Positions 25,426 to 51,675 of a stretch of DNA of 64,000 nucleotides are shown in pieces. The notes beneath the pieces were generated by a model. That model ran no database searches. It saw only the letters and a program-made list of their open reading frames with translations, and had not been told where the DNA came from. Source of the stretch: Schmidtea nova (taxonomy: Eukaryota). Position 1 is the first letter of the stretch; each line of letters begins with the position of its first letter. The translations under genes and the position numbers were made by a program. The stretch is from NCBI GenBank assembly GCA_044892505.1, contig CM097882.1, forward strand, positions 451,918,001 to 451,982,000. The letters are read 5' to 3'.

Positions 25426-25805
25426 CAGTCGAATCAAATTTATTATCATGTTGGATCCACCATTTGGTCCACATTTAACATAAAAAATAATAATAAGAAG
25501 AAATAAATAGGAACAAATTAAATGAATATAATTACGAGAAATATCAGTAAAAAACGAATTAAAATGTAATAAAGACTATTAATTTAATATCAAAATTAGA
25601 AGAAAAGTAAATGGAAAATGTAAAAGTGTTAAAGAAAAATGATAGTTAATTATATTTAAATAATAAGAAAGCGAAATAAATAAGTAAAAAAAAGAAGAAG
25701 AATTAATAAAAATTCGGTAAATTAAAACAAGAAAATGAAAATCATATTTGTTAATAAAATTGATTTTATTTTTACTAGAATTGTATTGATGACCATCAGA
25801 TTGAT

Positions 25806-25850
25806 GCTGATTGGTCAATGAACTGATCTGGTCAGTATAAATACTGATCC
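25806..25850 (+). promoter_or_regulatory. LTR promoter: ATTGG (CCAAT box) + TATAAATA at 25836 (copy at 48039)
   Basis: CTGATTGGTCAAT...CAGTATAAATA(C)TGATCCA is conserved with the diverged solo LTR (57381-57426) while the surrounding sequence is not. Confidence 0.7.
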
Positions 25851-26029
25851 AGATTCAGATAATTTCAAGGTAGTTTATGTTACATTTTTTAACGTAAAGT
25901 TATATGCTCTTTTGAATCAAATTTTGCTATTGGAGGTATGCTTATTATTTTTGTTATATATATTTGTGAATTTTGTCATTGCCATTAGCTAAATAAAACT
26001 TCTTTTAAAAATATCTTATTTTTATTAAG

Positions 26030-26382
26030 CTTCTTCCACTGTGTAATCAGTGGAAGGAGATAAAGGTATTCATAGGATTTATCATAATTAAATTAAGCTT
26101 CTTCCACTGTGCAATCAGTGGAAGGAGACGACTCTATTTATATATTTATTTATCCTTTATTGAGCTTCTTCCATCGTGTAATCGGTGGAAGGAGGCAACA
26201 TTGTGTATGATATTAACAATTAGGTTGAAGAATATTTTTATAAACAATTTTTGGGTCGAGCTTCTTCCCCTGTGAAATCAGTGGAAGGAGGCGAATATAT
26301 ATATTATTTATATACAGTAGATACAGTAGAAATTACGTATGATTTAAGGGGCTCCGATCACCGTGCAATCGGTGAAATGGAG
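26030..26382 (+). other. Array of five ~12-bp-stem hairpins with TG(T/C/A)AAT hexaloop (copy at 48233-48585)
   Basis: CTTCTTCCACTG-TGYAAT-CAGTGGAAGGAG at 26030, 26098, 26165, 26261 and a variant at 26352, separated by unique AT-rich spacers. Confidence 0.85.
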
Positions 26383-26853
26383 GCATACTGTGCCGAGTAG
26401 AATGACTGCTCCGTACAGTTGGGCCGTCCGACCGGTGTATAGCGCCGTGAAGAGGGTAGGAATTTTTATTTTAACCATGATTTCTAACCTTATTTTTCAC
26501 TGGATAGTATAACCAGTTGAAGTTTTATTTTATAACCGATTTGATTTTATGAGTTTATAGTTGAGTAGAGTTTGATTTTAGTTTGAGACAGATATAGCTG
26601 CGATCTTATTAACCTGGTTTTACCTTGAGATTCACAGAGTGTTAACGTATATTTTTCGATTGTCACATCTGGGGTTTGTGGGCATAGAGCGGCAGATACA
26701 CGGTTAAGAATTTGTACAAAATACATTTTTTAAATATAACCATTTCAAAAATCGATAATTCAATAGCGTAGTGATCTACTACGCAAGTAACATAACAGCA
26801 ATAGGTTATAGGATCAAACATTCCACATAAATAATTAAATATAATTGCTTATC

Positions 26854-26989
26854 CTGAACCCTGTACATAGGGCAGTAGATCTTAGTTTATTTAACTAATT
26901 TTGTAACCTGATTGCTGTATATAGCACAGGCGTGAATAAATAAAATGTATTAAGAAATAAATGTATCTGATCGCTGTACATAGCGACAG
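26854..26989 (+). other. Array of three bulged hairpins with GTAYAT hexaloop (copy at 49057-49192)
   Basis: CTG-AA-CCCT-GTACAT-AGGG-CAG; CCTG-AT-TGCT-GTATAT-AGCA-CAGG; CTG-A-TCGCT-GTACAT-AGCGA-CAG. Confidence 0.8.
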
Positions 26990-27117
26990 TGTTGAAAGTG
27001 TAATAGGTAAATCATTTTCTTTTCCTGAATTAGCAATTAATAACTGTCAAAAGTATGAGAATCGTTCGAATCAAGACTACCAATTTCATGTTAATAAACC
27101 ATCTTGAATTTTAGAGA

Positions 27118-27711
27118 ATGTCAGCCAACACAGCAACTAATCAAGCCGAATTGGATAAAGCATGGAGGATAATTCGCAGCCTGGAAAAAGAAATGTTACG
27201 GAAATCTGAAAAATTAAAAGAAGCCGATGGCATAATCTCAAACCTGAAGAAAAGCTGGTTCAGTCCAGAGCAGATGAAAACACAAATTATAAAAAATCAA
27301 CGCTCACAGCGAGCAAACGAGGAGATCAAAATGGAATTGGACGCGACGAACATGGAACTAAAGAAATGTCTAAAATCTGTAACGGCGTCGTATTTAACTC
27401 AAGAGCTCAGCCAGCTCATTCGACCAATCACTTATCAGCATTGGGCTGACGAGAAAGCAGGATGCACAAAAGGAACGAACACCGAGGAACCATCTCAGGT
27501 TCGCGCAATAACAATAGCAGCAAGTACACCAAAGAACACGACAAATCCAGAAGGTAAAAGGAAGAAGAAGAGCAAGATGGGAGCGCGCCAGCGTCGCTGG
27601 AAGAAACAAGTTCTTCAGCAATTGGCACCGCAATCAAAAGAAATTCCCGAAATTGATCTAACTATGAACTTTGCAATATCGGATGAAGACATTACCAAAT
27701 ACTTTGAATAG
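27118..27711 (+). CDS. LTR-encoded 197-aa coiled-coil protein with an Arg/Lys-rich motif
   Basis: Intact ORF, identical in both LTRs, with a clear homologue at 59131-59727 (shared KSWF-P--MK, EL-KCL-SVTASY, IRPITYQ-W); basic motif KRKKKSKMGARQRRWKK. Confidence 0.85.
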   Translation: MSANTATNQAELDKAWRIIRSLEKEMLRKSEKLKEADGIISNLKKSWFSPEQMKTQIIKNQRSQRANEEIKMELDATNMELKKCLKSVTASYLTQELSQLIRPITYQHWADEKAGCTKGTNTEEPSQVRAITIAASTPKNTTNPEGKRKKKSKMGARQRRWKKQVLQQLAPQSKEIPEIDLTMNFAISDEDITKYFE

Positions 27712-28311
27712 GAATTCTGTGATTTAGTTATTTTCGCGTATTAAATAATTTTTGTTTTGTATTTATTTTATCGTAAAGTATATGAAATAGAGTGATTTAT
27801 TAAAAATTTAAAATAATTTAAAGGAAAATATAAATTAAATTAACTATACATTAGAATTAACAATAAGATTAACATAAATCTAATAAACAATAGAAACATT
27901 AAAGAGATAATATATTGTAATTGACTAAAGATTATTTGTTGATATTGTAAAGAAGGGGGCTGAAAGAAAAGTTGAAAGTTGAAATATATTGTAAAGAAAA
28001 GGGGGCTAAAGAAACATTGAAATGAAAGATAATGGATGCGGATAGATTAAAGTAAAAGCGTAAGTCCTTCTATCGGCAGCGAGACGAACCCGTGAACATA
28101 AATGGGGAGTAGTTTTAGCAATAGAGCTCACCTGCCCATCATTGTTCAAACACCTTGCACATTTCCAACTCGATTATTACAGGGAAATGATCGAGGGTGC
28201 TCGTGTGATATGTAAGCATTTTATGTGAGGTTTTGGATGGAGGAATCCCTAGAGCGTTTAGTTTAATTTTCTAATTTTGTTTTAACCCAATCCAGACCGA
28301 CAACATAAATT

Positions 28312-28329
28312 TGGAGGCTCAGCCGGGAT
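28312..28329 (+). promoter_or_regulatory. Primer-binding site TGGAGGCTCAGCCGGGAT (most similar to a tRNA-Pro 3' end)
   Basis: Starts TGG 6 nt after the LTR; resembles the animal tRNA-Pro PBS pattern TGGGGGCTCRWCCGGGAT. The tRNA identity is an inference. Confidence 0.75.
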
Positions 28330-28705
28330 GAAAATGGTTTTGTGCGAAAAATTGAATCCAATAATAACAAGGAGTTTTAAAGTGCCCCTCAGCCGAAAAC
28401 TTAATTGATTTTTGTGTTAAAAGTGAAAACAATATCTACAAAGAATCTTGAAAACCAATGATTTAATAAATATAACAACAGACGACTAATAATTGATATT
28501 AAAAATGAAATAAATAAACATAAATAAATATGTCGGGACGACAATTTGATGAAGCAGGGAGAGGTTTAACATCAGAAAACGAAATGTACCACTACTTTTG
28601 ACCAACACAAATCGAACAAATAGGGAAACAAGATATTGAAATTTTTATTTTTGATTGAATAATTAATAAAACAGCAAACATATTAACAATATAAATTATT
28701 TAGCA

Positions 28706-29167
28706 ATGAACGACAAATTAAAAGAAATAGAAGAATTCTTAAACACGGAAAACAAAACATACGATGAACTATGCGAGAAAATAAGTCGAATAAGAGAATC
28801 CAGATTCAAAGAACCCATGACACAAACTGAAGAGACAACAGAGCTGATAAAAATAATGGAAAGAGTAGACAAAATAGATATAACAACTAGATACAAGTGG
28901 TACCGAACGAGAGTAGAAAATGCTGAGTTAAATATAAAATGCAGACAGTTAGAACAACAATTAACTCCAACATACCACAAGTGGACAATACAAGGAACTG
29001 AGACAGCCAAGAAATTTAAACTCTGTTACATATGTCGAGAAAGAGAGAATAAAATCATGTTTTTACCATGTGGACATTTCCGGTTTTGTGGAATCTGTGC
29101 AGCCAATTGCGACAAATGCCCGATGTGCAATCTCGAAATAGACGAAAGAATTATTGTGTATTTATAA
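28706..29167 (+). CDS. C-terminal RING (IAP/XIAP-type C3HC4) protein, no BIR domain
   Basis: CYICRERENKIMFLPCGHFRFCGICAANCDKCPMCNLEIDERIIVYL at the extreme C-terminus, preceded by coiled coil. Confidence 0.85.
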   Translation: MNDKLKEIEEFLNTENKTYDELCEKISRIRESRFKEPMTQTEETTELIKIMERVDKIDITTRYKWYRTRVENAELNIKCRQLEQQLTPTYHKWTIQGTETAKKFKLCYICRERENKIMFLPCGHFRFCGICAANCDKCPMCNLEIDERIIVYL

Positions 29168-29214
29168 TAAATAAATGATGAATTTAGTAATATTATTCGT
29201 AATAAATAAAATAT

Positions 29215-29400
29215 GAGAAAGGATAATGAGAATTAATATGATAATTCATAATGAGAATTAATATGAGAATTCGTAATAAGAATTAATAGGATAATTCATA
29301 ATGAGAATTAATATGAGAATTCGTAATAAGAATTAATATGAGAATTCATAATGAGAATTAATATGATAATTGATAATGAGAATTAATAATGAGAATTTAA
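29215..29400. repeat. Degenerate GAGAATTAATATGA(G/T)AATTC tandem repeat
   Basis: Seen directly; several imperfect units. Confidence 0.7.
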
Positions 29401-29871
29401 AATGAGAGTTGATAAAGGCAATGACAGAAATCATGATAGCAATTGATATTTATAAATAATTTTTGAGCTGCTCACGAGTAGTCCGTTAAGCACCCATTGG
29501 GAGGAACCAACTGATCAACTTACCCGAGATATATAGAAAGGGGCCCATCGCGGAAATTGGAAAGCTTTTGTGATGTGACTGATCACCACATCTTGCATTA
29601 GTAGACCAATGCGATCTTTTTGTATGTTTTGGTTGGGGTGAAAGGTAGGGACAATCTAATGAGGTTTAAGTGCATGCAGAAAATACAAATAAAAAAGAGA
29701 GAATAGAACACTGATCAGTGAAAGTCGAAAGAACATTAAGTAAATAAGTAGAATGAAAGTTAATGTGATAACTCTCATAACAATAGAGATAATTCAGCTG
29801 AATGATAACTAGCGAAGTGGATAATTGCGGTTAACCGGTTAAAGAGATTAGTTAAATACCTTGTATAAAAA

Positions 29872-30577
29872 GGGCAAATAAGCCATATTAGTTACTCTGA
29901 AAGAAGGGTCAAGGGCAAATAAGCCATATTAGTTACTCTGAAAGAAGGGTCAAGGGCAAATAAGCCATATTAGTTACTCTGAAAGAAGGGTCAAGGGCAA
30001 ATAAGCCAGATTAGTTACTCTGAAAGAAGGGTCAAGGGCAAATAAGCCATATTAGTTACTCTGAAAGAAGGGTCAAGGGCAAATAAGCCATATTAGTTAC
30101 TCTGAAAGAAGGGTCAAGGGCAAATAAGCCATATTAGTTACTCTGAAAGAAGGGTCAAGGGCAAATAAGCCATATTAGTTACTCTGAAAGAAGGGTCAAG
30201 GGCAAATAAGCCATATTAGTTACTCTGAAAGAAGGGTCAAGGGCAAATAAGCCATATTAGTTACTCTGAAAGAAGGGTCAAGGGCAAATAAGCCATATTA
30301 GTTACTCTGAAAGAAGGGTCAAGGGCAAATAAGCCATATTAGTTACTCTGAAAGAAGGGTCAAAGGCAAATAAGCCATATTAGTTACTCTGAAAGAAGGG
30401 TCAAGGGCAAATAAGCCATATTAATTACTCTGAAAGAAGGGTCAAGGGCAAATAAGCCATATTAGTTACTCTGAAAGAAGGGTCAAGGGCCAACAAGCCG
30501 TATTAGTTAATTACTCTGAAAGAAGGGTCAAGGGCCAACGAGCCATATTAGTTAATTACTCTGAAAGAAGGGTCAAC
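29872..30577. repeat. 41-bp tandem array (GGGCAAATAAGCCATATTAGTTACTCTGAAAGAAGGGTCAA), 15 near-perfect + 2 variant copies
   Basis: Exact 41-bp period from 29872 to 30487. Confidence 0.95.
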
Positions 30578-30579
30578 GG

Positions 30580-30800
30580 CAACATAAGAATTTGAACCTA
30601 TGATTGCAATAGTGATAGCAACACAAGGAATGTGAACCTGTGATTGCGATTGTGGATAGCAACACAAGGAATGTGAACCTGTGATTGCGATTATGGATAG
30701 CAACATAAGGAATATGAACCTATAGTTGTAATTGTTGAAATTTAGTAAATTTAGCAACCTAAGGAATTTGAACCCAGGTTTGCAATTGTGTGAAATTAAA
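30580..30800. repeat. Second degenerate array with 41-bp period (AAGGAATGTGAACCTGTGATTGCGATTGTGGATAGCAACAC)
   Basis: AAGGAAT recurs at 30625, 30666 and 30707. Confidence 0.75.
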
Positions 30801-31419: not shown

Positions 31420-34400
31420 TTGAGATCAAGAGCAGTTAGTGCTACAATCGAAAAAGTTGATAATTCACAGAGAAATAAATCGAAACAAAGAGCAACCAGT
31501 GCTACAAAGAAAACAAATCCTAAAGGAAGTAAATCAAGAAGAGTAATAGTAGAAAAGTCAAAAATCGAAAACAGTAAATTAACAAAAACTAACGAAAGTG
31601 AAACAGAAGAAAGTTCAAGTGAAACCTACGATAATTATAATAATACGGAAGCATCAGATAACGAGTCAATAAACACAGAAGAAGTAGAAGCAGAAATTGA
31701 TAATAATTCAAACGAAACGAATAACGAGCATACTAGTGAAACAAGAGGAAACGAGAGTAAAACGACACAAGACAGCGGAATTGAAATGAACGAGCATAAA
31801 GAAGAAATCAAAGATAAATTTACTGGAGAACCATTCAATGGAGATGCCAGCAAGTTGGAAACGTTTTTAAAAGAATTTGGTATATTTGTAGAAGTATGTA
31901 AATGGAAACCAGAAACGATAAGGAGCAGAATTCAGTTATATTTAAAAGACAGTGCGTTAGACTTATATTTAGAAGCTAAAAATTCAGATGATCAACTTGA
32001 TAGTTGGGAAAAGATAAAGAATTTTTTCCAGCAAACGTTTGGAATAAATAAAGTATTAAATGAAGCATTTACAGAATTTTCAATGAGGAAACAAAAAGTT
32101 AATGAATCAAATGCAGTATATGCAAGTGAATTAAAGAAATTGGCTAAATTAGCATTTAATCAAAATAGTCCAATGAGTTCAGAATTAATGGCAGCAATTT
32201 TTGTGGGGGGATTGAGAAGACCCGATATAAGAGCACAAGTTGGATGCCAAGGTTGTAAAACAATAGATGAAGCGTTGGAAATCGCTAACAGATTTGAATT
32301 ACATATGATCGGAAGTGAAGGAAGAATTTACCTAGCAATGGATACGACACAAAATGAACAAGCAATGAAGATAAACAATCATATCCCGAATTCACAACAA
32401 TTAAACCGACCACCACCTCAAAGGAGAAATGAGGGAAACAAAGTACAAAATTTCGGAAACCAAAATAATTATAATACGCAAGGACAGACAAAGCAATGTC
32501 AAACCTGTGGAAAGTTAGGACATTGGCAACAAGAATGTTTCGTGAACTTAAATTGTAAAACGTGTGGAAGAAAAGGACATTCGGAAAATAGATGTTACCA
32601 AAGATCATGTTATAACTGTGGACAACCAGGTCATATGGCAAAGAATTGCCAACAACAAAACAACCAGCTAAGGAATTGGTCGAACAACGGAAATCGACAA
32701 AATTATGCGAATCAACAGAATAACGGAAACCGTCAGAGTTATGGAAATCAACAGAGTAATTATAACCAGAATAAAAGTACCACCAAAGAAATACATTTAT
32801 TACAAGAAGTTCAGAGATTGACAGAGTTAATAAATAATACACCGAGAGGAAATCAACAAACGAATCAACAACAAATGAATATGATGAGAAAAGTAGAAAG
32901 TGAAAACGAACGACTAAATCGAGAAAGTCAAGCACGACATGCTCAAGAATGGGCAAGAATACAAAGAGAAGACGAACAGAAACGACAAGAAAGAGAACGA
33001 CAACCATTGAGAATTAATATGATGAGAGCAACGAATCAAACAAGAGATAACAAAGAAGATATTGAACCAGAAACAAACCGGATAAACCCAAATCCGGAAG
33101 ATGAAGAAAACCAAAAAGAAATAGTACAAGAAAACGAAGAAGTTATTAAACAAAAAAGGATGTTGGTAGTCATGCCAAACGATCATGTATTTCGATTTGA
33201 ATATGATGAAAAAGAGGAAGTAGGAGTATTAATTAATAAAGTAAACAAGACGATTCCGGGAATGACGAAACTACCCCGAGAAGCAATTTTACAGACAGAA
33301 GACGAAGCAGCAATAAAATTGAAACCAACCGACATATGGAAAGATTTAGGAGTACCAATGAATAAAATGAAAGTCACAGTTATCCAGGAAATAGAAGAAA
33401 ATAACGATGAAGAGAAATCAAAACCAGTAACAAAAGTCAAAAGTAGAGCATTGAAGATATTTGAAGAGAGAATCAAACAGAGAAAAGCAATGGAGATAGA
33501 AAAACGAAGAGGCCAAATAGAAGAATCAGGAACCAATGACAAAAAGGAAGGAATACCACAAAAAAATGTACCAGATAAAGTAGAACAGACAGCACTCATT
33601 AATATGTTAAGAAACTTAACTAGAGAATTTTCAGATGTAGAAAGTGACAGTGATGTCAGTAGTTTAGCAGGAGATATGCTAAAAGAACCAGAAAATGAAG
33701 ACAACAAGATAGAAGTAGCGAAGACGCCAGAAAATATACAAATAAAAGAAGATGAAATTCAGAAACTATTAGATAATGCGTTAGAAGTGATTTATAACGA
33801 AGAATTTATTGATAAGAAGCGATATCGAAAATTTATAAGAGCAGTATTCCGAACGAACTATAAAGAACGGTTACAAAGTCGTGAATTAGAGATATTATCA
33901 GGATACGTCGTCAAACTATTAGAAGAACCACTCCACGAATACATAATTTTAATAGAAATAAACGAATGTTCACCAAGAATTTGGATCAAATCTCCATGCA
34001 CGAATGAAATTTATCGATGGGTAGAAGACAGATTGGGAAGTTCGTATAAAAACAAATTTATATATTCAGGAAACGAACTTGTAAGACGAGCAACGCATTT
34101 GGTAGAAACAGGCATATGGCCAGGAGAGATAAAAACATTATCAATATGCGACAATAAGAAAGAGGAGAATTTACAAGAAATTGCAAAGGAAGCAAATATG
34201 TGTTTTGAGATGAGAATTAAACCTCAGTTAGTAGAAAGGAAAGAAAGAATTCTTAGAGAAAATTTAAATTCACTAATAGAACAAATTATTCAACAAATCG
34301 ACAAGAATAGAGAAGAATTAACAAAAACTGAATATGAGAAATTAAAACAATGCATCGAAAATATACGAGATACCAGCCATACGAGACATTCGTCATACAA

Positions 34401-37400
34401 GACTTGGAAAGTGATCGCGAAAATGGGAAAAGCGATGTTTAAACGAGGAGAAATAGGAGATTTGAAAATCAAAGTGAAATTACCAAACGAGGACACAAAA
34501 GAAATTGAAGTAATCGCGGATTGCACAATAGAAGAATTAGTTGATGTTATCAATGAGACTTTATTACAACGGGAAAAAGAAGACGAATTAGAAGACGATA
34601 TCATCATGAAATATAATGAACACGTGCTAGGAGATCATGATGAGAGACGATTATATAAAATTGGCATATGGGATAATTACCAAACAATTCATGTTATCAG
34701 AATGGATGATACACCAAGAGAAACACCAAAAGATGAAAAAAGGAGACAAGAACGTCGAAGAGAAGAGATGCACAAACTAAGACAAATAATAGAAATTTAT
34801 CGAAGATGGCAGATACAGCCAGAATGGGAAAATGTTTTAGGAGAATTAAACTTCAACGAACGCCGATTAATACCAGTAGAGAAACACTGGGAGGTTAAAG
34901 AGAAATGCTGGAAAGCAAAAGGAGGTATATATGAAGAGGAATTTAGACCAGAAATGGAAGACAAATATGAACCAGAAATTAGAAGAGTTTGTATGGTGAC
35001 AAGAAAAGTCATGCCAACAGATTTAGATGGACCAGAAACCGCAGCAATATGGTTAGAAACGCAAAAACGAAAAGCTGACGAACTTATTGAATTACTAAAA
35101 GGAAACGTACAAGGAAAAAGGCGAACGATCAAAGGATTAGCCGAATTCTTTGTAGCAGGCGGCGAAGATATAATCAGTTTAAGAAAAGTAGCCAAGGTAG
35201 TAACAGAATATAAACGAGTTAACGAGTGGTGCCCAGAACAATTAGACAATGTAATCAAGAAATGGAGAAACCAAGAAAACTCCCAAGAACCACCGCAGAA
35301 AATACATTTAAGGATAATATATCCAGATCGAGAAAAAGAAGAACTTTGGGTAAGATTAACCGAAAAGATTCGAGATGTTAAAAAGAGATTAAAATATGAA
35401 CCACCATTTCATCTACAACATCAAGGACGATCACTAGAAAACGATATGGAAATTTGGATAACGCCAGCACAGTTAGAACTGGCAAATACGTTAACAGTAG
35501 ACGCAATAGCAGGTCAACCATTAAAACTTAAAGAGAAAAGAATAAAAGAAAGTGGAGATACTCAGAATCTAAGGAAGACGATGCAGATAAAACCAGGAAC
35601 AAGCGCAAGGCAGTACGAAACAACATCAATTAAAATCCAAGAAAGAACTCGACCACAACCATACGATACAGAAGAAATCTTAACAGACAGTGATGACATG
35701 CTAGAAGAATTAGCAAAATTGACAAAAGAAAAAGGCAATAATATTTTCGAAAGAGTACAAGAGTTACCTACAACATCACAAGCAATCAATACCCAAGATG
35801 AAGTTGAGCAAGAAATAGAGATAGAAGAAGTGAACGAAATCTCTGAAGAAGAAGCAAGAGGAGCAAATACAGAAAAGGAACGATTAACACAAGAAATGGA
35901 AAAATGGTGGGAACAGAGAAATAATGAACCAAGAGATGTTACAGAGGAAACTGGACGAGAAACCAGATTGATTGAAGCAGGTACAACAATGGATAGACGA
36001 CCTAGAGGTAGACCAAAGACTGATCCAGCCAACATAATCAACAAAACTAAAGAGGAAAGGAGACAAGAGAAATGGGAATTATGTTTAAAGAAACTCAACA
36101 AAATAGCAGAAGCAAAAGACCAGGAAATAACGCAAAAATGTCAAGGTGAAGGATGGATATCAAAAACACTAATGGAAATATTGGCGATAATTGATCCAGA
36201 ATTGAAAAAATGGTGGAGAATAAACGAAATAAGCGACAAGGCTAAAGCATTACATAGCGCAATCGCACCAATCTTACCCGAACTGATAAAAGAGAAGACA
36301 AAATCAAGCCATTTAGATTGGCAAGGGACCACAACGTTGATAAAGAGGTTAACTGAAGATGCAGAAAACGATAATAAATATGTGATAGCAATTGCGTATA
36401 CAATTTATAACTTATTAACATTGAGTAGAGGTAATCCAAAATCTATGGCAATAGAGAAACATATCAAAAATACGGCAGGCATCATAGCAAAAGAAATAGA
36501 ACCATACGTCATCAGTAAAGGAGGATGGGAAACATTTGTTAAAACGAATCAAAGAAACAGTCAAGCAAAGAATATGAAAAAGAAATTTGAAGAAATTTTA
36601 GGAGAATTAGAAAAAGAAAAGTCAGGAACAGGAGGTGGAAAACCTTCACTAAACCTGAATTCAATCATAATGATGATATTAATATGGCTAATTAGCGTTG
36701 AAGGAGCAACGGCGTTCGAAGTATTTGATTGCGACCAGATGGCATTAGGAGAAAAATATTCATTAAGAGGAACCGAACAATGCAAAGATGCAACTCCAAC
36801 AGAGCTAAAAGTACTACATAGTAAACAAATATATCACGTATATCAGGAAGCCGACTTAATAAAGACAACAGTTAATGAATGTAAAATATATAAAACAAGA
36901 TTTGCTTTTTATTGTGGACATCGCCACTACTCTGCAATCGTAATGCCAGGAACGGAAAGGGAAGCGATAATGTTACAAGGAGAAGATTGCAATAAATTGT
37001 TCAAACATGGAGAAGTCGAAACAAGAGATCGAATAAAGATAAGAGGAAAAGCTGGAGTAATACTACAACAAACATATTATGTAGCAGGAGCTATCACAGG
37101 AGGAGAAGGTTACTGTCAAGGAGCAACATATCCAATATTTGGAGTACCAGCAACTAACCTGGTAGTAATCGACACATACACGGTAGAATTAAAAGCGTAT
37201 GAAGCATATTTTGACCCAGCTACAGGAGAAATGAAGACGTTATCAATGTGCAAAATTGAAGCCAGTACTTGTCAAACCGGTATGTCAACTTTAACATACA
37301 GAGCAAAAGCAAATGAATGCCAATTACAATTATTAAAGGAAGCGGAGTTCGACGAGGTACAAGGAAAAATCTTTCAGGAAGAATATGATGATGAAGTAGC

Positions 37401-40656: not shown

Positions 40657-40673
40657 TAATTATAAAAAGAGAA

Positions 40674-43600
40674 ATGCCAGTTGCGTTTTTATTAACAAAA
40701 GAAAGAATAATGCCGATTCATAGAGCATTGAGAGCAGGAAAAGACAGTAAAGTAATCGAAATCGCAAGATTAATGCATCAATGTGGATGTGATATGAATA
40801 TGATAGATGAAAAAGGAGACACCCTCATGGTATACGCAGCAAGAGCAAAAACAAAAATCAAAGTATTAGAAGAGTTATATAAAGCAGGCGCAGGATTAAT
40901 CGGAAAAACTGTCAAAGACAACTCAATATTAGACGTGACATTATTAGGTCCAAACTGGGAAATGTTGAATTTCATTAAAACGATAACAAACCAAGAAGAG
41001 ATAGATTATTTAACAGAAACCGTAAAAGGACCAAGCGTATTGACAATGATGCAAAACATCAAATTGACAGAAGAAGTATTAAACTGGAAAATACCAAATA
41101 CAAATAAACCAGCATTTAAAGTTAACAAGTTTATGGAGAAAAATCGAAATTGGTGTATCCAAAGCGCACTAATAACTTATATATGGCCCGAAATTGTAGA
41201 AATTTTTATGAGAAGAGAAGACCTGAGATTTACAAACAAGCCTAAAGAAACGGAAAAGGTAGTTAAATGGAAAGAATTGATGAAAACACACCTTCAAAGA
41301 TGGATAAAAGCCAAGAAAGAAATTATACAGTATCAGTTAGACAACAAAAAGATACCCGAAGATATAGAATTCCAAGAATTCGAAGCAAGTAATTTAACAT
41401 CACTATATTATGCAAAACTAATAGAAACAAGTAATGTCGAGGACGACATTTTTAACGAGCCAGGGAGAGATAATAATACTGACAATGACGATGACGATGA
41501 AGAAAACAAGGACGACGAGAGAAATAATGACGACGAAAGAAATAAAGACGATGATGATGATCACGGAAACCCAGATAACCACGAACAAACCAACAAAGAA
41601 GACGAGAATCAAGAGAGAAATACAAAGAACCACGAATCCAAAGAACAAAGAGAAGACAACCCTAAAAACAATCATGAAAAGAAAGGAACAAGTTACAGAA
41701 GGAATCCATTATTCAGACCAGAAGTATTAATGTTCGCACTAATCATAACATTTATGGGACAATGTGAAGCAACGGAACAAGAGATATCAGTAGAAATGGA
41801 AATACCAATACAAAAAGCATCAACGCAAATAATGAATTCAAAGGATATTGAACAAGTATGTTGGGTAAAAGAGAATGAAATTCTCGGAGATAACAACCTA
41901 TTACGATGTATAATACCAAACCCCGAGCGAAAAACCATAATAGTAGACGAAATGGATATGGAGACATGGTACAGAATATGTACTATCAGAAAACCCAAGG
42001 ACGAAAAATCACACAAAATAGTTACATGCCAAGTATACAAGACACCCAAAGTTCGATACGAGTTCGCCAATGGAATAGACCTTCCAGGACCATTTTATTT
42101 TAAAATAACAAGAGAACCAGCATCAAGAAAAGTCTTACAACCACCAAGAACCAAGATAACAACACCAAGTATAAGGAATACAACGGATAAACCAGAAGCA
42201 AACGGAAGAAATACAACGGTTAAACCAGAACCAAAAAGACGAACGAAACAAACCACAAGAGTAATCTATAACTCCAAGTTGTTATGTATAGCACTTATTA
42301 TGACAATACTGAAGCGATTGGAAGAAGGGATAGAAATGGATACAATGACATTAATAGACATGGAAGAGACACGAATGACAAATCAAAAATGTTGGTTTAG
42401 AAACGATGAAAAATTAGAATTAAAGGAATCAAGAGAAATTCGAAAATTGGAAGCGAGTAAAACGAACAAAGTAATCAAGATAATAAAGATAAAAACAGAC
42501 AGAATTCATAAACTATGTTTATTGGAAAAAGAGAGAAACAAGAAAGGAATAACCAATTGTAAAACATCCCAAGCAGGGAAAATAATAACGTTTGCAAGAA
42601 AGATGGGGAAAAGAAACAAACAAAATTTCCAGAAATTAACCATAACGTTAGAAATGACGGGAATAGAACAAAACGTAAAAGGAGTATGCTGGAGAAAATA
42701 CGAGAAAGAAGCGAACAAACACAAATCAGCACAATGTCAAACAGTTGTTAGAGGAACAACTGCAGTGCAAATAAAAAGCTTAGAAAGAAATCAAACGTAT
42801 GAAATATGCCTAGTAAAAGAAAATGATCAAATAACGAAAGAAGATTTAGAATGCAGAATATACAAAGCACCGAACAGAGTAAAAACCATTAAAGCAATAC
42901 GAAAGAATAAAAGACAACAAAAACCGAAGCATACCACTACCGAAAGTCAAACAGAACCAGAGAGAAAAACCTCAGCAACACTTATACTTTGGAAATTGGA
43001 TGACAAAACAGTAGAAATATGTTGGTCAATGATCAAGAAATACGAAGAAAGACAACCACAACAATGCGAAAAGATGAATAAAGAAGAGGAGATCAGAATT
43101 CAGAACCTACAATTGGACAAACAATACGAAATATGCGCAATAGAGAAGACAGATAAATTCGGAAACCAGCAAGAAAAATGTGGAAACTACTATACACCGA
43201 CAAATACAACGATCAAAGGAAGAATCAAGAAACTAACTTTCGGAGAACTCAATCAAACAACGAAACAAATGGAAAACGAGGAAGCAATAATAGATTCTTA
43301 TGCCAAATGGAAACCAGAAAAAGTAATCCATGAAGTCAAAAGGAAACAACAAGAACGACAACAATTGGAACTCAAATTAAAAGGACAATATGGACCAATG
43401 ATTAATCAAAGCAAATTCACCCAAATCAATATTAACAAACAAGGAAGAGAACTAATTGGAGTAGGAATATTGGCAGTATGCGTACCAATAATAATAATAT
43501 TATCAATAATATGGTTATGGGACATAATAAAAAAGAAACCAACCAGACAATGGCCAGATATAAAGATCATGAATTGTAAAATCAAAATACCTGAAGAAGT

Positions 43601-43697
43601 GAAGAAAGAATTCCAAAGAAGAACCAAAGGCAAAGAATTTTGGAAGCAAATAGAAGACGAGGAGCGACACGATGAAAAAGCAGTGATGATAGTATAG
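40674..43697 (+). CDS. 1007-aa protein: ankyrin repeats - acidic D/N/E linker - hydrophobic signal/TM - four FN3-like Cys/Trp repeats - C-terminal TM
   Basis: MPIHRALRAG, KGDTLMVYAARA (ankyrin); four repeats CW..C..(I)xxLxxxxxYxIC..C; TM LIGVGILAVCVPIIIILSIIWLW followed by KKK. Confidence 0.8.
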   Translation: MPVAFLLTKERIMPIHRALRAGKDSKVIEIARLMHQCGCDMNMIDEKGDTLMVYAARAKTKIKVLEELYKAGAGLIGKTVKDNSILDVTLLGPNWEMLNFIKTITNQEEIDYLTETVKGPSVLTMMQNIKLTEEVLNWKIPNTNKPAFKVNKFMEKNRNWCIQSALITYIWPEIVEIFMRREDLRFTNKPKETEKVVKWKELMKTHLQRWIKAKKEIIQYQLDNKKIPEDIEFQEFEASNLTSLYYAKLIETSNVEDDIFNEPGRDNNTDNDDDDEENKDDERNNDDERNKDDDDDHGNPDNHEQTNKEDENQERNTKNHESKEQREDNPKNNHEKKGTSYRRNPLFRPEVLMFALIITFMGQCEATEQEISVEMEIPIQKASTQIMNSKDIEQVCWVKENEILGDNNLLRCIIPNPERKTIIVDEMDMETWYRICTIRKPKDEKSHKIVTCQVYKTPKVRYEFANGIDLPGPFYFKITREPASRKVLQPPRTKITTPSIRNTTDKPEANGRNTTVKPEPKRRTKQTTRVIYNSKLLCIALIMTILKRLEEGIEMDTMTLIDMEETRMTNQKCWFRNDEKLELKESREIRKLEASKTNKVIKIIKIKTDRIHKLCLLEKERNKKGITNCKTSQAGKIITFARKMGKRNKQNFQKLTITLEMTGIEQNVKGVCWRKYEKEANKHKSAQCQTVVRGTTAVQIKSLERNQTYEICLVKENDQITKEDLECRIYKAPNRVKTIKAIRKNKRQQKPKHTTTESQTEPERKTSATLILWKLDDKTVEICWSMIKKYEERQPQQCEKMNKEEEIRIQNLQLDKQYEICAIEKTDKFGNQQEKCGNYYTPTNTTIKGRIKKLTFGELNQTTKQMENEEAIIDSYAKWKPEKVIHEVKRKQQERQQLELKLKGQYGPMINQSKFTQININKQGRELIGVGILAVCVPIIIILSIIWLWDIIKKKPTRQWPDIKIMNCKIKIPEEVKKEFQRRTKGKEFWKQIEDEERHDEKAVMIV

Positions 43698-43852
43698 AGG
43701 GTGGGATATGACTGTAAATAATATTGTAAATTACAAAGCATTACCGTATATAGTATGGGTATTAGTATTATAGAGTATATAAAAAGAGAAAAGAGAAAAA
43801 TAATAATGTATTTTAGAAAACGAATGTACGAGAAGAAACAACCGAAACGACT

Positions 43853-44155
43853 ATGATTATGCGATGGAAAGCACAATGTGAAACGTTAGTTCGATCAATC
43901 AATGCACTACAGAATCAATTGGTAGAGAAGCAAAATATATTAGCAGATTGCTACAACAATATCTTTGAACAATTACATAAAATAGAAGAGCAACAGAGAA
44001 TAATAACAGAACTGACAAGAGAGAATCAGAGATTGAGACAAACAGCGGAAATGAATCAACTATCAAGAAGAGATGAATCAGAAGGTCAATGGCTAGATTG
44101 GGTAATAAATGGATTAGAGAATGGTATGGAACCAGATTCAACGAGCGAACCATAG
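43853..44155 (+). CDS. 100-aa coiled-coil protein with acidic tail, unknown function
   Basis: Sense-strand ORF with the same A-rich codon style as its neighbours; heptad pattern. Confidence 0.55.
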   Translation: MIMRWKAQCETLVRSINALQNQLVEKQNILADCYNNIFEQLHKIEEQQRIITELTRENQRLRQTAEMNQLSRRDESEGQWLDWVINGLENGMEPDSTSEP

Positions 44156-44251
44156 TCAAATTGTAGCGGAAAATTGTATATATGTAAAAATAAAACTCTA
44201 GAAAAATCAAAAACAAAGAACAAATCAATGTGTGTATATATTATTGTAGAA

Positions 44252-45607
44252 ATGGATAAAGAGGAACGAGCAGTCGAGATTTTGAGAGCAGCAAACAGAA
44301 ATTGGAACAAGAGATTTGTATGTGGATATTGTAATAATTTATTACGGAAACCAAAGCAAACCGCCTGTGGATGTAGATTATGCACCAGATGTGTACAAAT
44401 GTTAGAACTAAAGAAAATAACAGAATGTCCAGAATGTAAAGAAGGACAAATAGTATTAGACGAAACAAGACCAGATAGAGCAACTCAGAGAGAAATCATG
44501 AGCATATTAATTGAATGTATAAATCCACCGTGCATATGGCAAGGACAAATCAGCGAAATTGAAAATCATATAGAAAATTGTGAAGAAAAGAGAAGCGAAT
44601 GTGAAAAGTGTAAAGAAACGATAATTTTAAAAGACAAAGAGAAACACAGAGGTGAATGCAAAGAGGAAGAAATCGCATGTGAATATTGCGAAATTCGAGA
44701 AACAAGGAGAAAATTTGAAGAGGAGCACATCAATATAAAAGAAGAGAGAATATGCGAACAGTATGTAGGAGTGTGCCCAAACAAATGTGAAATTACCGAA
44801 GAAGTGAAATTACGAGAACATTGGGAAAAGTGTACAGAAATACCAAGAGAATGTCCTTACAACAGATATGGATGCAAGGAAAAGAAGTCTCAACAAAATA
44901 TGAAACAACATTTAGAAACAGAAGCAATCAATCATATTGAAATGACAGACAGAACAATTCAGAAATTAGAAAAAGAAGTGGAATCTCATAAAATAATGAT
45001 GAACCTATTATTAGAAACGAGAGAACAGTTTGAATTAACCCGAAGAAAGATGGAAAAGAAAATAATAGCCATCAAGGAATTAGCAAAAGGAATGAAAGTG
45101 CAATATAACAAGTTAATACAAGAAATTGATGAGAAAAAAGATTTACCAATAGCACCTTATGTGTGGAAAATAACGGATTTCCGAAATAAATTGGAAGATG
45201 CACGAAGCTTCAAGAAAACTGCGGTAATAAGCCCACCATTTTACTTATGGAAAAACGGGGCTAAAGTGAGATTGAAAGTATACCCAAACGGAGATGGGAC
45301 AAGTATTGGAAAACACGTATCGATATTTTTTGCGTTTTGCAAAGGAGAATATGACGATTTAATCGATTGGCCGATAGGAGTAGGAGTAATGATAAAAATC
45401 AGGGGTTTAAACGAGACCATAGAAAAGAGATTCACGACAGAAAAAGGAGCAGTTACGAGTAACAGACCAACAGAAGAATGTGGATTAGCAAGTGGAGAAC
45501 CACACTTTGTATTACAAAGCAAGATATGGGGATTATTGTATGAGGACACCTTATACATAGAAATGGAAAGGAACGAGAAGGCAGATAGAAAAGGATGGTT
45601 GGCGTAG
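44252..45607 (+). CDS. TRAF-family protein (RING, TRAF zinc fingers, coiled coil, MATH/TRAF-C), intronless
   Basis: CGYCNNLLRKPKQTACGCRLCTRC..CPEC; C-N--C-W-G-----E-H---C; PYVWKITDF..ISPPFY....AKVRLKVYPNGDG...GKHVSIFF..KGEYDDLIDWP. The likely ATG is 44252 (alternative 44228; the frame is open from 44174). Confidence 0.95.
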   Translation: MDKEERAVEILRAANRNWNKRFVCGYCNNLLRKPKQTACGCRLCTRCVQMLELKKITECPECKEGQIVLDETRPDRATQREIMSILIECINPPCIWQGQISEIENHIENCEEKRSECEKCKETIILKDKEKHRGECKEEEIACEYCEIRETRRKFEEEHINIKEERICEQYVGVCPNKCEITEEVKLREHWEKCTEIPRECPYNRYGCKEKKSQQNMKQHLETEAINHIEMTDRTIQKLEKEVESHKIMMNLLLETREQFELTRRKMEKKIIAIKELAKGMKVQYNKLIQEIDEKKDLPIAPYVWKITDFRNKLEDARSFKKTAVISPPFYLWKNGAKVRLKVYPNGDGTSIGKHVSIFFAFCKGEYDDLIDWPIGVGVMIKIRGLNETIEKRFTTEKGAVTSNRPTEECGLASGEPHFVLQSKIWGLLYEDTLYIEMERNEKADRKGWLA

Positions 45608-45712
45608 CAAGAGAAAATGATCGTGTAAATAAACTGTACAAAACAATATAAAATGATAAATAAACAAAAATAATAAAAGTAGTTTGATTGAAAATATTTG
45701 TAATTATAGAAA

Positions 45713-46714
45713 ATGGGAAACGTCGAAATCAGTTTACAAGAAGTGACCGCACATCAAGATGAAGTTATTTGTGAGCATTTAGAACAAATTGAAAGTTGGA
45801 TCCACGCATATTACCACAAATAAAAAGAAGTAGAAAGACAAGCCGAACAAATAACAGAAGCCAAAAGATTAAAGCGATTAAGTCAAGATAAAATAGACGA
45901 ATTATATGAATTATTGGAGAAACAAAAAGAATATTATAAAAAGATGATGAAAGAACGACGAGAAGAAAGAGAGCGAGAACGAACAGAAATGGAACGGAAA
46001 ATGTACTCCATTACCGAGCAAGCAAGATATTGGAAAAAAGAAGCGAAAGAATCTTATACGAAAGCAAGAGAAATAATCGAAAGAACGGCGTACAGCGATG
46101 ATTGGAAATTATTCGAAGAAATCGATAAATTAAAAGAGGAATTAGAACAGAAAACCTATCAGGAAATATCGAGCAAAAAATGGAATAAAAAGAGACAACA
46201 ATTCATCAGAGAGCAAGCAGGAAAAATTAAACAACTTATGCACCAGATTGAAAGGTCGGAAAGAGAATTATATTTCAGTAAACAACAATCAGATGCAAAC
46301 CTCAGAGCAGGGATGCAGAAAGAGGAAGATATGAAGCGCGATATTAATGGTTATCAAGGAGTAATCACTCAAAAGAAGATAGAATTAAAGAAAACTAAAG
46401 AAAGATTAGAAGAAGCAAAACAAAGCTATGAAGAAAATTTATTAAAATTAGAGGAAGCAAAACAAAGCTATGAGGAAAATTTATTAAATTTAACCAAAGA
46501 AAATGAAGAGTTGAAACAAAAACTGATACAAAAATTAACACCACCAAAAGAGACAGATATCACCAAAGCAGTAATAAAAATGATGGAAGAGGAAGAGAAA
46601 AACAAAAAAAATAACAGAATTAGAAAAACAGATCGAAGCGTTAACAGAACAATCAAATTATTTAGAATATCTGTTAGACGAAGAAATTCAATTGTCACAC
46701 TTCTATCGAGATGA
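45713..46714 (+). CDS. Coiled-coil protein; the ATG at 45713 is in frame, but a single TAA at 45821-45823 interrupts it
   Basis: MGNVEISL..YYHK*KEVERQAE.. continues in frame into the 266-aa track ORF, which has an internal duplicated heptad block EEAKQSYEENLL. Confidence 0.6.
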
Positions 46715-46891
46715 AGTAACAATGTGGAGAAACACGATAGTGTGGTTACCACTCCCTACGAATCAAGTGGAACCTCAAGATGAAGGTTTTCACGAACCCA
46801 ACGAGTCGTTAGTTTAAAAAGAAGCGAAAATTGGTTGTAAATATCTGTAAAATAACCATGTCAAACTGTATTGACAAATTTGTAAAGTGAA

Positions 46892-47455
46892 ATGAAGAAG
46901 CTCGCAATACTGATAATCCTAAACGTAATCGAAATCACCCAACAAAGAGAAGACCGTCAGTTATCAAAAGAAAACCTACAAGTCTTACCCGATAAAATCT
47001 ATAAAGAAATAGATAATCTATTAAAAGAAACAGTCAGAGAAATCTCTCAAATTCAATTGTCAACAGCACCTAACCCAGTATCAACGCAACAAACCCTGTG
47101 CAAAATCAATAACAAATTAGAGAAGATTCGAAAAACCCTAAAAGAAAGGAAAGAAACTATAAAGAATTTACATCGAGCAGAAATTCAATACCAAGAGAGA
47201 TGGATCGTTGCAATCATAATCGTGTTAACAATTAGTACAACAACCTGCGCAATTACCATTCTCATCGCAGTATATAGAATAAAGATCCTAAAACAAAAAC
47301 AATCAATCATCAATCAAACAACAGCATATGATGACAATGCCCGAAGACAAATGAGAAATCAGCTCAACAGAATACGAACCCAATACGAGTTACCAGCAAT
47401 TCCACAGAACCAGTCCAATCCAGTGCGAGTTATGAACTATTTGTATAAACCATAA
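46892..47455 (+). CDS. 187-aa type I membrane protein (signal peptide, helical ectodomain, TM, Tyr-containing tail)
   Basis: MKKLAILIILNVIEIT signal; TM WIVAIIIVLTISTTTCAITILIAVY followed by RIK. Confidence 0.7.
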   Translation: MKKLAILIILNVIEITQQREDRQLSKENLQVLPDKIYKEIDNLLKETVREISQIQLSTAPNPVSTQQTLCKINNKLEKIRKTLKERKETIKNLHRAEIQYQERWIVAIIIVLTISTTTCAITILIAVYRIKILKQKQSIINQTTAYDDNARRQMRNQLNRIRTQYELPAIPQNQSNPVRVMNYLYKP

Positions 47456-47648
47456 ATACTTGACAAAATATTTGATTAACAATTATCTGAATTTTCTTTA
47501 TATTTTCTTTGTGATTACGTATAGAATAGACTCACCTTATGTGAAGCTGTATACATATGTACCAAGCGTAAAAATTTTTTATGAATGTTGAGTATAAGTA
47601 ATAGTGTATAATTAATTGCGGGACGCAATTTTAGGGGTCCCCGAGTGA

Positions 47649-50508
47649 TGTTGGATCCACCATTTGGTCCACATTTAACATAAAAAATAATAATAATAAT
47701 AAGAAATAAATAGGAACAAATTAAATGAATATAATTACGAGAAATATCAGTAAAAAACGAATTAAAATGTAATAAAGACTATTAATTTAATATCAAAATT
47801 AGAAGAAAAGTAAATGGAAAATGTAAAAGTGTTAAAGAAAAATGATAGTTAATTATATTTAAATAATAAGAAAGCGAAATAAATAAGTAAAAAAAAGAAG
47901 AAGAATTAATAAAAATTCGGTAAATTAAAACAAGAAAATGAAAATCATATTTGTTAATAAAATTGATTTTATTTTTACTAGAATTGTATTGATGACCATC
48001 AGATTGATGCTGATTGGTCAATGAACTGATCTGGTCAGTATAAATACTGATCCAGATTCAGATAATTTCAAGGTAGTTTATGTTACATTTTTTAACGTAA
48101 AGTTATATGCTCTTTTGAATCAAATTTTGCTATTGGAGGTATGCTTATTATTTTTGTTATATATATTTGTGAATTTTGTCATTGCCATTAGCTAAATAAA
48201 ACTTCTTTTAAAAATATCTTATTTTTATTAAGCTTCTTCCACTGTGTAATCAGTGGAAGGAGATAAAGGTATTCATAGGATTTATCATAATTAAATTAAG
48301 CTTCTTCCACTGTGCAATCAGTGGAAGGAGACGACTCTATTTATATATTTATTTATCCTTTATTGAGCTTCTTCCATCGTGTAATCGGTGGAAGGAGGCA
48401 ACATTGTGTATGATATTAACAATTAGGTTGAAGAATATTTTTATAAACAATTTTTGGGTCGAGCTTCTTCCCCTGTGAAATCAGTGGAAGGAGGCGAATA
48501 TATATATTATTTATATACAGTAGATACAGTAGAAATTACGTATGATTTAAGGGGCTCCGATCACCGTGCAATCGGTGAAATGGAGGCATACTGTGCCGAG
48601 TAGAATGACTGCTCCGTACAGTTGGGCCGTCCGACCGGTGTATAGCGCCGTGAAGAGGGTAGGAATTTTTATTTTAACCATGATTTCTAACCTTATTTTT
48701 CACTGGATAGTATAACCAGTTGAAGTTTTATTTTATAACCGATTTGATTTTATGAGTTTATAGTTGAGTAGAGTTTGATTTTAGTTTGAGACAGATATAG
48801 CTGCGATCTTATTAACCTGGTTTTACCTTGAGATTCACAGAGTGTTAACGTATATTTTTCGATTGTCACATCTGGGGTTTGTGGGCATAGAGCGGCAGAT
48901 ACACGGTTAAGAATTTGTACAAAATACATTTTTTAAATATAACCATTTCAAAAATCGATAATTCAATAGCGTAGTGATCTACTACGCAAGTAACATAACA
49001 GCAATAGGTTATAGGATCAAACATTCCACATAAATAATTAAATATAATTGCTTATCCTGAACCCTGTACATAGGGCAGTAGATCTTAGTTTATTTAACTA
49101 ATTTTGTAACCTGATTGCTGTATATAGCACAGGCGTGAATAAATAAAATGTATTAAGAAATAAATGTATCTGATCGCTGTACATAGCGACAGTGTTGAAA
49201 GTGTAATAGGTAAATCATTTTCTTTTCCTGAATTAGCAATTAATAACTGTCAAAAGTATGAGAATCGTTCGAATCAAGACTACCAATTTCATGTTAATAA
49301 ACCATCTTGAATTTTAGAGAATGTCAGCCAACACAGCAACTAATCAAGCCGAATTGGATAAAGCATGGAGGATAATTCGCAGCCTGGAAAAAGAAATGTT
49401 ACGGAAATCTGAAAAATTAAAAGAAGCCGATGGCATAATCTCAAACCTGAAGAAAAGCTGGTTCAGTCCAGAGCAGATGAAAACACAAATTATAAAAAAT
49501 CAACGCTCACAGCGAGCAAACGAGGAGATCAAAATGGAATTGGACGCGACGAACATGGAACTAAAGAAATGTCTAAAATCTGTAACGGCGTCGTATTTAA
49601 CTCAAGAGCTCAGCCAGCTCATTCGACCAATCACTTATCAGCATTGGGCTGACGAGAAAGCAGGATGCACAAAAGGAACGAACACCGAGGAACCATCTCA
49701 GGTTCGCGCAATAACAATAGCAGCAAGTACACCAAAGAACACGACAAATCCAGAAGGTAAAAGGAAGAAGAAGAGCAAGATGGGAGCGCGCCAGCGTCGC
49801 TGGAAGAAACAAGTTCTTCAGCAATTGGCACCGCAATCAAAAGAAATTCCCGAAATTGATCTAACTATGAACTTTGCAATATCGGATGAAGACATTACCA
49901 AATACTTTGAATAGGAATTCTGTGATTTAGTTATTTTCGCGTATTAAATAATTTTTGTTTTGTATTTATTTTATCGTAAAGTATATGAAATAGAGTGATT
50001 TATTAAAAATTTAAAATAATTTAAAGGAAAATATAAATTAAATTAACTATACATTAGAATTAACAATAAGATTAACATAAATCTAATAAACAATAGAAAC
50101 ATTAAAGAGATAATATATTGTAATTGACTAAAGATTATTTGTTGATATTGTAAAGAAGGGGGCTGAAAGAAAAGTTGAAAGTTGAAATATATTGTAAAGA
50201 AAAGGGGGCTAAAGAAACATTGAAATGAAAGATAATGGATGCGGATAGATTAAAGTAAAAGCGTAAGTCCTTCTATCGGCAGCGAGACGAACCCGTGAAC
50301 ATAAATGGGGAGTAGTTTTAGCAATAGAGCTCACCTGCCCATCATTGTTCAAACACCTTGCACATTTCCAACTCGATTATTACAGGGAAATGATCGAGGG
50401 TGCTCGTGTGATATGTAAGCATTTTATGTGAGGTTTTGGATGGAGGAATCCCTAGAGCGTTTAGTTTAATTTTCTAATTTTGTTTTAACCCAATCCAGAC
50501 CGACAACA
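47649..50508 (+). repeat. 3' LTR (2860 bp)
   Basis: Same sequence at offset 22200/22203; the encoded proteins are identical. Confidence 0.95.
49321..49914 (+). CDS. 3' LTR copy of the 197-aa LTR protein
   Basis: Identical translation to 27118-27711. Confidence 0.85.
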   Translation: MSANTATNQAELDKAWRIIRSLEKEMLRKSEKLKEADGIISNLKKSWFSPEQMKTQIIKNQRSQRANEEIKMELDATNMELKKCLKSVTASYLTQELSQLIRPITYQHWADEKAGCTKGTNTEEPSQVRAITIAASTPKNTTNPEGKRKKKSKMGARQRRWKKQVLQQLAPQSKEIPEIDLTMNFAISDEDITKYFE

Positions 50509-50512
50509 ATCA

Positions 50513-51560: not shown

Positions 51561-51633
51561 ATAATAATAATAATTATTATTATTATCAATAATTCTCATA
51601 ATGATGACTATAGATCAAAATTTTTTTTTAAAC

Positions 51634-51675
51634 AATACCACAATATTTCGGCACAGCCTTTATCAAGTGTGTATT
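51634..51675 (-). ncRNA. Inverted copy of the pLTR hammerhead ribozyme
   Basis: Reverse complement of 54501-54542. Confidence 0.65.

Follow-up and report, generated by a model that had tools for sequence, protein, structure and literature searches.

How does a giant retroelement multiply when it encodes no polymerase, and which element lends it the missing enzymes? This question is raised by a 25.06 kb long terminal repeat (LTR) element that occupies positions 25,449–50,508 of a 64,000 nt stretch of the Schmidtea nova genome (CM097882.1, 451,918,001–451,982,000; hereafter the window, on which all coordinates are 1-based). An earlier note on this DNA had described a recently inserted element without Pol that borrows its reverse transcriptase (RT) and integrase from a helper of another family. 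The Pol carriers that we found belong instead to the element's own family, here called family A, and are about 97% identical to it; B and C denote sister families. Very probably it is a young member, devoid of Pol, of a family of giant gypsy elements of Burro type, in which copies have lost Pol, a block containing Env, both or neither in frame. The element was likely copied and inserted by the RT and integrase of Pol carriers of the same family in a shared particle.

The ends of the element, its cis signals, its losses and the solo LTR that led to its relatives lie in the window as follows:

25,445–25,448: left 4-bp target-site duplication (TSD), ATCA on both sides of the element
25,449–28,305, + strand: 5' LTR of 2,857 bp with TG...CA ends, from the LTR pair comparison
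28,312–28,329, + strand: primer-binding site (PBS), complementary to the 3' end of host tRNA-Pro(TGG) genes
33,575–38,948, + strand: block (middle region, Bcl-2-like region and Env) that is absent from Env-less sister copies through in-frame deletions of 5,385 or 5,388 nt
39,420–39,446, + strand: junction of an in-frame 3,021-nt deletion that took out RT, RNase H and integrase entirely; lies at an imperfect direct repeat and lacks GT-AG ends
47,619–47,648, + strand: 30-nt tract in the position of a polypurine tract, ahead of the 3' LTR
47,649–50,508, + strand: 3' LTR of 2,860 bp, from the LTR pair comparison, with TG...CA ends as in the 5' LTR
50,509–50,512: right TSD, ATCA
57,034–60,197: solo LTR of family B, 3.16 kb, TG...CA, TTAG TSD, two ORFs (open reading frames) inside

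Between the two LTRs there are only two differences, a single substitution and a 3-nt indel within a run of AAT. The near-identical LTRs of about 2.86 kb, the ATCA duplication on both flanks and the PBS reported in the earlier note were thus all recovered, and the almost identical LTR pair bears out a recent insertion. The PBS holds one mismatch that is private to this copy. Genes for the corresponding primer, tRNA-Pro(TGG), form a long 308-bp tandem array at about 459.6 Mb of C1, with 899 pattern matches genome-wide. The tract ahead of the 3' LTR is nearly invariant across the examined copies of families A and B; it is no plain purine run and contains GGGAC...GTCCC, a possible hairpin.

Searches for RT, RNase H and integrase by tblastn, using three Pol-bearing relatives as well as the family's own 986-aa Pol, gave no match in the window at E<=1. 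The reported lack of Pol therefore held, and these searches found no divergent RT or integrase in either of the two long frames, ORF1 and ORF2. Comparison with family B located the loss in one clean in-frame deletion between the protease and the ankyrin repeats. Within family A, Pol has been removed in three ways, by deletions of 3,021, 3,039 and 2,973 nt, the last of which occurs in three older copies of 89–94% identity. All three retain a motif (I/M)N(M)(M/L)R ahead of the ankyrins, and all three joints also stand in contigs assembled from short reads (the runs may share their source with the assembly). The loss of the Env block goes back to two different deletions (5,385 and 5,388 nt). The second of these could be a modified form of the first, yet it matches its right-hand parent exactly. 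Each of the five deletions is a multiple of three, keeps the frame and ends in short direct repeats without GT-AG. Since private indels mostly break the frame (23 of 26), the deletions present in many copies represent a selected set. Apart from the deletion junctions and this copy's own break no shared frameshift was seen, the 23 frameshifts all being private.

For a census of family A, the 180-aa region behind the Pol junction served as protein query. Of 150 matches listed, 82 had 81–100% amino acid identity; these are the top matches for one region, and all counts of forms are lower bounds. Fifty were assigned by junction searches and the other 32 by fetching their loci, complemented by a pattern search for the Env junctions. 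Among the 82 matches listed, the form with Env and without Pol was found 50 times including this copy, with 40 calls resting on a match that shows the 3' end of the Env block only and 13 copies besides the one in the window seen over most of the block. Thirteen matches lacked both parts, ten had Pol and no Env, five were full-length and four were partial or unassigned. The Env-less form with Pol, which is complementary to this copy, had not been part of the earlier note. From the individual frequencies of the deletions 10.6 full-length, 44.4 Pol-less, 4.4 Env-less and 18.6 double-deleted copies would be expected, versus 5, 50, 10 and 13 observed. Judged by frame length, the polyprotein is unbroken in 15/50 Pol-less, 5/13 double-deleted, 6/10 Env-less and 2/5 full-length copies, and some matched frames are long (5,115–5,147 aa and 3,330 aa).

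The full-length form measures about 28 kb with Pol. In 14 carriers Pol was 97.5–99.5% identical, in 13 of them without a stop; the Pfam RT, RNase H and integrase domains are complete with a YIDD motif, and the ratio of nonsynonymous to synonymous changes (dN/dS) was 0.02 for shared variants. The deletion of Pol in the window is no singular event either: the junction pattern search returned 42 exact matches to it. Twelve of 12 further complete copies, chosen among the top matches of an LTR-PBS search and a junction search, were co-linear, Pol-less and 96–97% identical inside, and stood at distinct sites. The loss of Pol is thus real and common to many copies, as the earlier note had supposed.

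Copies of every form have inserted recently. LTR-LTR divergence amounted to 0–0.43% in 12 Pol-less, 0–0.14% in four full-length and 0–0.28% in seven double-deleted copies; for the Env-less copies it was 0.04–0.39% in six of seven, the exception (1.09%) having mismatched flanks. Exact TSDs were found for 10/12 Pol-less, 3/4 full-length, 5/7 Env-less and 6/7 double-deleted copies, 18 of 20 copies having been scored for the latter three forms. LTRs of different copies are only 84–92% alike to those of this copy. Double-deleted copies with matching LTRs and TSDs were therefore inserted as such and not formed between two loci. All forms share the LTR ends, the PBS and the 3' tract.

The forms also recombine. 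In trees of Gag, protease and ankyrin sequences they intermingle, and all stand apart from family B (the regions are short and many nodes weak). Pol junction 1 occurs together with Env, with Env junction 1 and with Env junction 2; Pol junction 2 occurs with Env and with Env junction 2, and both Env junctions occur also with intact Pol. This four-gamete pattern across about 480 nt argues for template switching between co-packaged RNAs, an argument that has been used for cattle ERVK (PMC10924933, in the part of the account on which we draw); recombination between forms implies co-packaging. The Pol-less copies thus lack an essential enzyme, keep the cis signals and have multiplied at distinct sites, and family A holds an autonomous partner that has the same cis signals and recombines with them. 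The proposal that Pol is needed in trans agrees with these data.

All coding parts of family A are under purifying selection. Among 13 Pol-less copies dN/dS was 0.05–0.27 in every part, values that, because the forms recombine, describe the recombining pool and not the Pol-less lineage alone. We also considered Env variants that occur in none of the five full-length copies but in at least two among 19 Pol-less copies. These comprised 15 nonsynonymous and 33 synonymous changes (dN/dS 0.12), with 3 and 11, respectively, in the 3' half (dN/dS 0.07), and there was no shared stop in Env among them. Selection on Env supports, and does not prove, that working Env is made from Pol-less loci. It lends indirect support to the earlier suggestion that the Pol-less element supplies particles and an envelope.

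The solo LTR in the window led to family B, which provided the first Pol-bearing relatives. Family B is about 29.9 kb long, carries Pol and is about 77% identical to family A. It shares with A the PBS, the TGTTGG...CA ends, the 4-bp TSD and, but for one base, the 3' tract. Pol-containing relatives with the same LTR ends and PBS, for which the earlier note had proposed to look, are hence found both within family A and in family B. The synonymous divergence between A and B is about 1 to 2.6, and three trees contained no A-B mosaic. Most of the LTR cannot be aligned between the two families, apart from a block of about 200 bp near the LTR 3' end (28,055–28,252 versus 59,959–60,152) with about 81% identity, a candidate for a shared cis signal. 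In one family B copy (L052-L054) a large deletion has fused RT-RNase H to the 3' cassette, and a non-LTR element has inserted into ORF1. For family C, about 68 loci were listed at 59–65% identity. Integrase and RNase H were present in 20 of 20 fetched loci and Env together with Pol in 18, with no Pol-less copy among these 20 (one 5'-truncated, one read on the wrong strand). Among more distant relatives, the Burro-like P0005 has an RT with 55% identity to that of family A. In P0003 (34% identity), which may be a Pol-less form of independent origin, the order is Gag-Bcl-2-Env-protease-ankyrin and the last two domains are just about 300 aa apart. Two candidate origins were rejected: the top RT matches as parent of the element, three loci of the 150 listed, belong to distant families with Env and Pol (about 30–34% identical), and an old separate Pol-less lineage derived from family B was overturned by the Pol-bearing family A copies.

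The coding and leader features of this copy are:

27,118–27,711, + strand: 197-aa ORF within the LTR, no family match
28,706–29,167, + strand: 153-aa accessory ORF with a C3HC4 RING of IAP type (Pfam)
29,210–30,721: leader tandem arrays (25 bp x 7.9, 41 bp x 17.3 and a second 41 bp x 3.5)
31,786–40,656, + strand: ORF1, 2,956 aa, with Gag, CCHC knuckles, a long helical/ubiquitin-like middle, Bcl-2-like region, Env, protease and ankyrin; ends early here
36,190–36,600, + strand: Bcl-2-like helical region, weak BH2-like match
36,703–38,655, + strand: Env, fusion glycoprotein of Monjiviricetes type (Pfam E 7e-71)
39,058–39,327, + strand: retroviral aspartyl protease (Pfam)
39,613–39,990, + strand: ankyrin repeats (Pfam), which lie behind integrase in Pol-bearing copies
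40,600–40,620, + strand: private frameshift near 40,610
40,674–43,697, + strand: ORF2, 1,007 aa, with an ankyrin remnant, an acidic stretch, four Cys-containing FN3-like repeats and a transmembrane segment
43,853–44,155, + strand: 100-aa coiled-coil accessory ORF
44,228–45,607, + strand: complete 459-aa TRAF with RING, TRAF zinc fingers (zf-TRAF) and MATH (Pfam)
45,713–46,714, + strand: coiled-coil accessory gene; other copies encode 354–368 aa, this one has a private stop at 45,821
46,892–47,455, + strand: 187-aa ORF with an N-terminal hydrophobic stretch and one transmembrane segment

Gag, protease and Env had been called intact. The domains are indeed present, although the Pfam match of Gag is weak (E 3e-4, with CCHC knuckles found as well), but the copy itself is not fully intact. 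The frameshift near 40,610 divides the family's single polyprotein into ORF1 and ORF2, the latter being its C-terminal part in other copies; this site is read through in 11/11 other family copies covering it and in 5/5 copies of sister families. The frame of the coiled-coil gene with the stop at 45,821 is open in 11/12 other copies. Together with the PBS mismatch this copy thus has three private lesions. Hydrophobic segments lie on either side of Env, at aa 1626 and 2201. Motifs of the type (I/M)N(M)(M/L)R recur at module borders (ORF1 aa 364, 410, 605 and 2564) and may be protease cleavage sites. The LTR ORF has about 40% identity to its counterpart in the family B LTR and a dN/dS of 0.12 among family copies. 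The four 3' accessory ORFs (43,700–47,460) are tightly spaced, with short, AT-rich spacers.

As to the cargo described earlier, RING, TRAF and ankyrin were confirmed, while the Bcl-2-like and FN3-like parts gave weak matches only. The Bcl-2-like region shows a BH2-like match (PDB phmmer E 0.1), a relative reaching the Pfam Bcl-2 profile at E 0.0015, and a low-confidence single-sequence fold of it gave no structural match. For the Bcl-2-like and ubiquitin/SUMO-like domains ahead of Env, which match weakly here, the relatives P0003 and P0005 score better. The FN3-like repeats reached a Foldseek E of about 0.008 on a model with pLDDT 37 and a profile E of 0.34 to contactin-4; four are present in family A (41,763–43,235) and seven in family B (L067). 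No BIR domain was found by Pfam in any scanned ORF, such that the RING stands alone. Elsewhere in the window, positions 51,603–54,575 hold retroelement fragments that match no Pfam family and that we take, from their protein pattern, to be GIY-YIG/Penelope-like; they include a direct repeat of 831 bp as well as an inverted copy. An intronless 553-aa ORF for a TGF-beta type I receptor kinase (GS motif and kinase; 60,861–62,522) follows 0.7 kb behind the solo LTR.

How would such a family propagate? Each RNA would yield one polyprotein led by Gag, which the protease would cut. Deletions would have arisen by template switching at short repeats, and Pol-less RNA would be copied in mixed particles by the Pol of carriers of the same family. 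An open frame may be favoured if an RNA that makes its own Gag, with or without Env, is better packaged, as has been suggested for IAP I-delta-1. Among the matches listed, Env is missing from 10 of the 15 Pol carriers whose Env state is known, and Pol from 50 of the 55 copies with Env; each function is therefore likely provided mostly by one of the two deleted forms. More speculatively, Env-less carriers might rely on Env from Pol-less copies for passage between cells, which would amount to a two-part genome corresponding to the [1 0] and [0 1] genotypes in the cheat model of multipartite virus evolution (PMC10159356). Family A might then be an incipient two-part virus. By repeated in-frame splitting, a Gag-Env-PR-Pol genome (PR, protease) would have given rise to one genome with Env and another with Pol, which use common particles and depend on each other for spread from cell to cell, the rare full and empty forms being regenerated by recombination across the protease gene. 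We consider this extension rather doubtful. In its favour, family A does contain two genome types, each lacking a function that the other encodes.

Several observations weigh against the same-family reading or against its two-part extension. The full-length type has not been lost, five young copies persisting. Thirteen copies without Env and Pol have spread too, which shows that Env is not needed in cis, and Env-less copies may move alone inside a cell. Family C shows no split in 20 loci, such that the division of Env and Pol is not general. The repulsion between the two deletions (odds ratio 0.13, Fisher p = 0.001) follows from their origin; for this reason, and because the copies are related, we do not use the p value as proof. 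The low dN/dS of Pol-less copies may, as the forms recombine, in part have been passed on by full-length donors, among them donors now lost, beyond the five full-length copies compared. Finally, families B and C share the PBS, the LTR ends and the 3' tract and are abundant with Pol, such that Pol for the Pol-less copies could also come from them.

These points feed into the competing explanations. The Pol-less copies could be pure cheats that parasitise the few full-length copies, with Env-less copies being self-sufficient intracellular movers, no mutual dependence, and Env conserved through recombination and the need for a readable polyprotein. The spread of double-deleted copies without Env fits this view, the repulsion is what separate origins on full-length genomes would produce, and defective morphs that outnumber competent ones are known from cattle ERVK, as far as the relevant part of PMC10924933 reports. 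However, not only stops but also missense changes in Env are depleted among the variants found in Pol-less copies alone, and Pol-less copies with Env outnumber the 5.4 kb shorter double-deleted ones by 50 to 13 among the matches listed. We give this explanation somewhat less than an even chance. Largely refuted as the main route, and quite improbable, is the idea that the element represents a separate Pol-less family served by the RT and integrase of B or C. Such borrowing would be eased by the signals shared with B and by the abundance of Pol-bearing B and C copies, but Pol-bearing copies 97% identical to the element exist and recombine with it, whereas A and B are deeply diverged, with no mosaic in the three trees. 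Occasional help by Pol across families may occur.

Preservation of the frame and loss of entire modules, seen in each of the five deletions, would also be expected if the deleted forms were reverse-transcribed spliced RNAs of the full-length element. We rejected this origin as very improbable, given that no in-frame junction shows GT-AG, that the ends lie in short direct repeats and that the same module was removed at several different breakpoints. A one-off deletion or a mis-assembly is refuted for practical purposes by the 42 exact junction matches, the 12 co-linear copies at distinct sites and the presence of the joint in short-read contigs. A young Pol-less copy served by Pol carriers of its own family thus remains the reading that we favour.

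The link to Burro held. The planarian giant gypsy-like elements Burro and GYPSM1 have Env in frame between Gag and protease and a cargo of Bcl-2-like, ubiquitin-like, ankyrin and MATH/TRAF domains, according to the portion of PMC6431247 that describes them. The element resembles them in its single giant polyprotein, an in-frame Env similar to mononegavirus fusion proteins, CCHC knuckles, tandem repeats and accessory ORFs, as well as in the ankyrin and MATH/TRAF cargo, which Pfam found in this copy, and perhaps in the weakly matching Bcl-2-like and ubiquitin/SUMO-like parts. The cargo, being shared with Pol-bearing copies, is therefore no special satellite toolkit as had been suggested, but part of a known design. 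Described Burro elements carry PR-RT-RH-IN (RH, RNase H; IN, integrase), unlike 64 of the 82 matches listed here that lack Pol and 23 that lack the Env block. This region is absent from this copy and present in the full-length copies of its family, which makes the copy a Burro derivative. It is also smaller than the 30 kb quoted for Burro, at 25.06 kb against about 28 kb for the full form and about 29.9 kb for family B, and it differs in that TRAF is a separate downstream gene in family A and a BIR is lacking in the ORFs scanned. The section on Burro in PMC6431247 does not mention Pol-less or Env-less morphs.

Trans-complementation has precedents among endogenous retroviruses (ERVs), where bovine ERVK[2-1-LTR] D is complemented by C, IAP I-delta-1 by IAP, ETn by MusD and recKoRV by KoRV. 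There too, most copies are defective and are mobilised by a minority of competent relatives from their own clade, with four-gamete evidence for co-packaging and recombination; yet the defective forms (bovine D) are described as lacking functional genes and complementation runs one way (PMC10924933, in the part concerned with these morphs). In family A, by contrast, each deleted form retains a long polyprotein, open and conserved, that includes the part missing from the other. The genotypes [1 1], [1 0], [0 1] and [0 0] of the cheat model of multipartite virus evolution all occur in family A, where the full type is rarest. The model concerns infecting viruses, its text containing neither 'retrovir' nor 'retrotranspos' (PMC10159356), whereas in family A the full type persists, recombination takes place between forms, and within a cell the Env-less form may manage on its own. 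LARD-type elements are likewise large, non-autonomous and conserved, but their coding region is replaced and they rarely exceed 10 kb, judging from their brief treatment in PMC6431247; this element keeps about 4,000 codons under selection. Cargo and Env within the polyprotein are thus already known from Burro, and one-way complementation from ERVs. In the literature searched, with subscription papers outside its scope, we found neither complementary Env-less and Pol-less morphs within one LTR family nor a Pol-less Burro; Burro forms with deletions may already have been described in Grohme 2018 or the supplement to it.

In family A, Pol is for the most part carried by genomes without Env, and Env by genomes without Pol. 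Its four genotypes can be dated and counted in a single assembly, and it provides a natural test bed for how multipartite genomes arise. The split suggests a route by which an element with Gag, Env and Pol in one ORF may escape the fixed 1:1:1 ratio of its proteins. The conserved Env of the Pol-less copies, finally, is relevant to the question whether enveloped particles are really produced by Burro elements in planarians.

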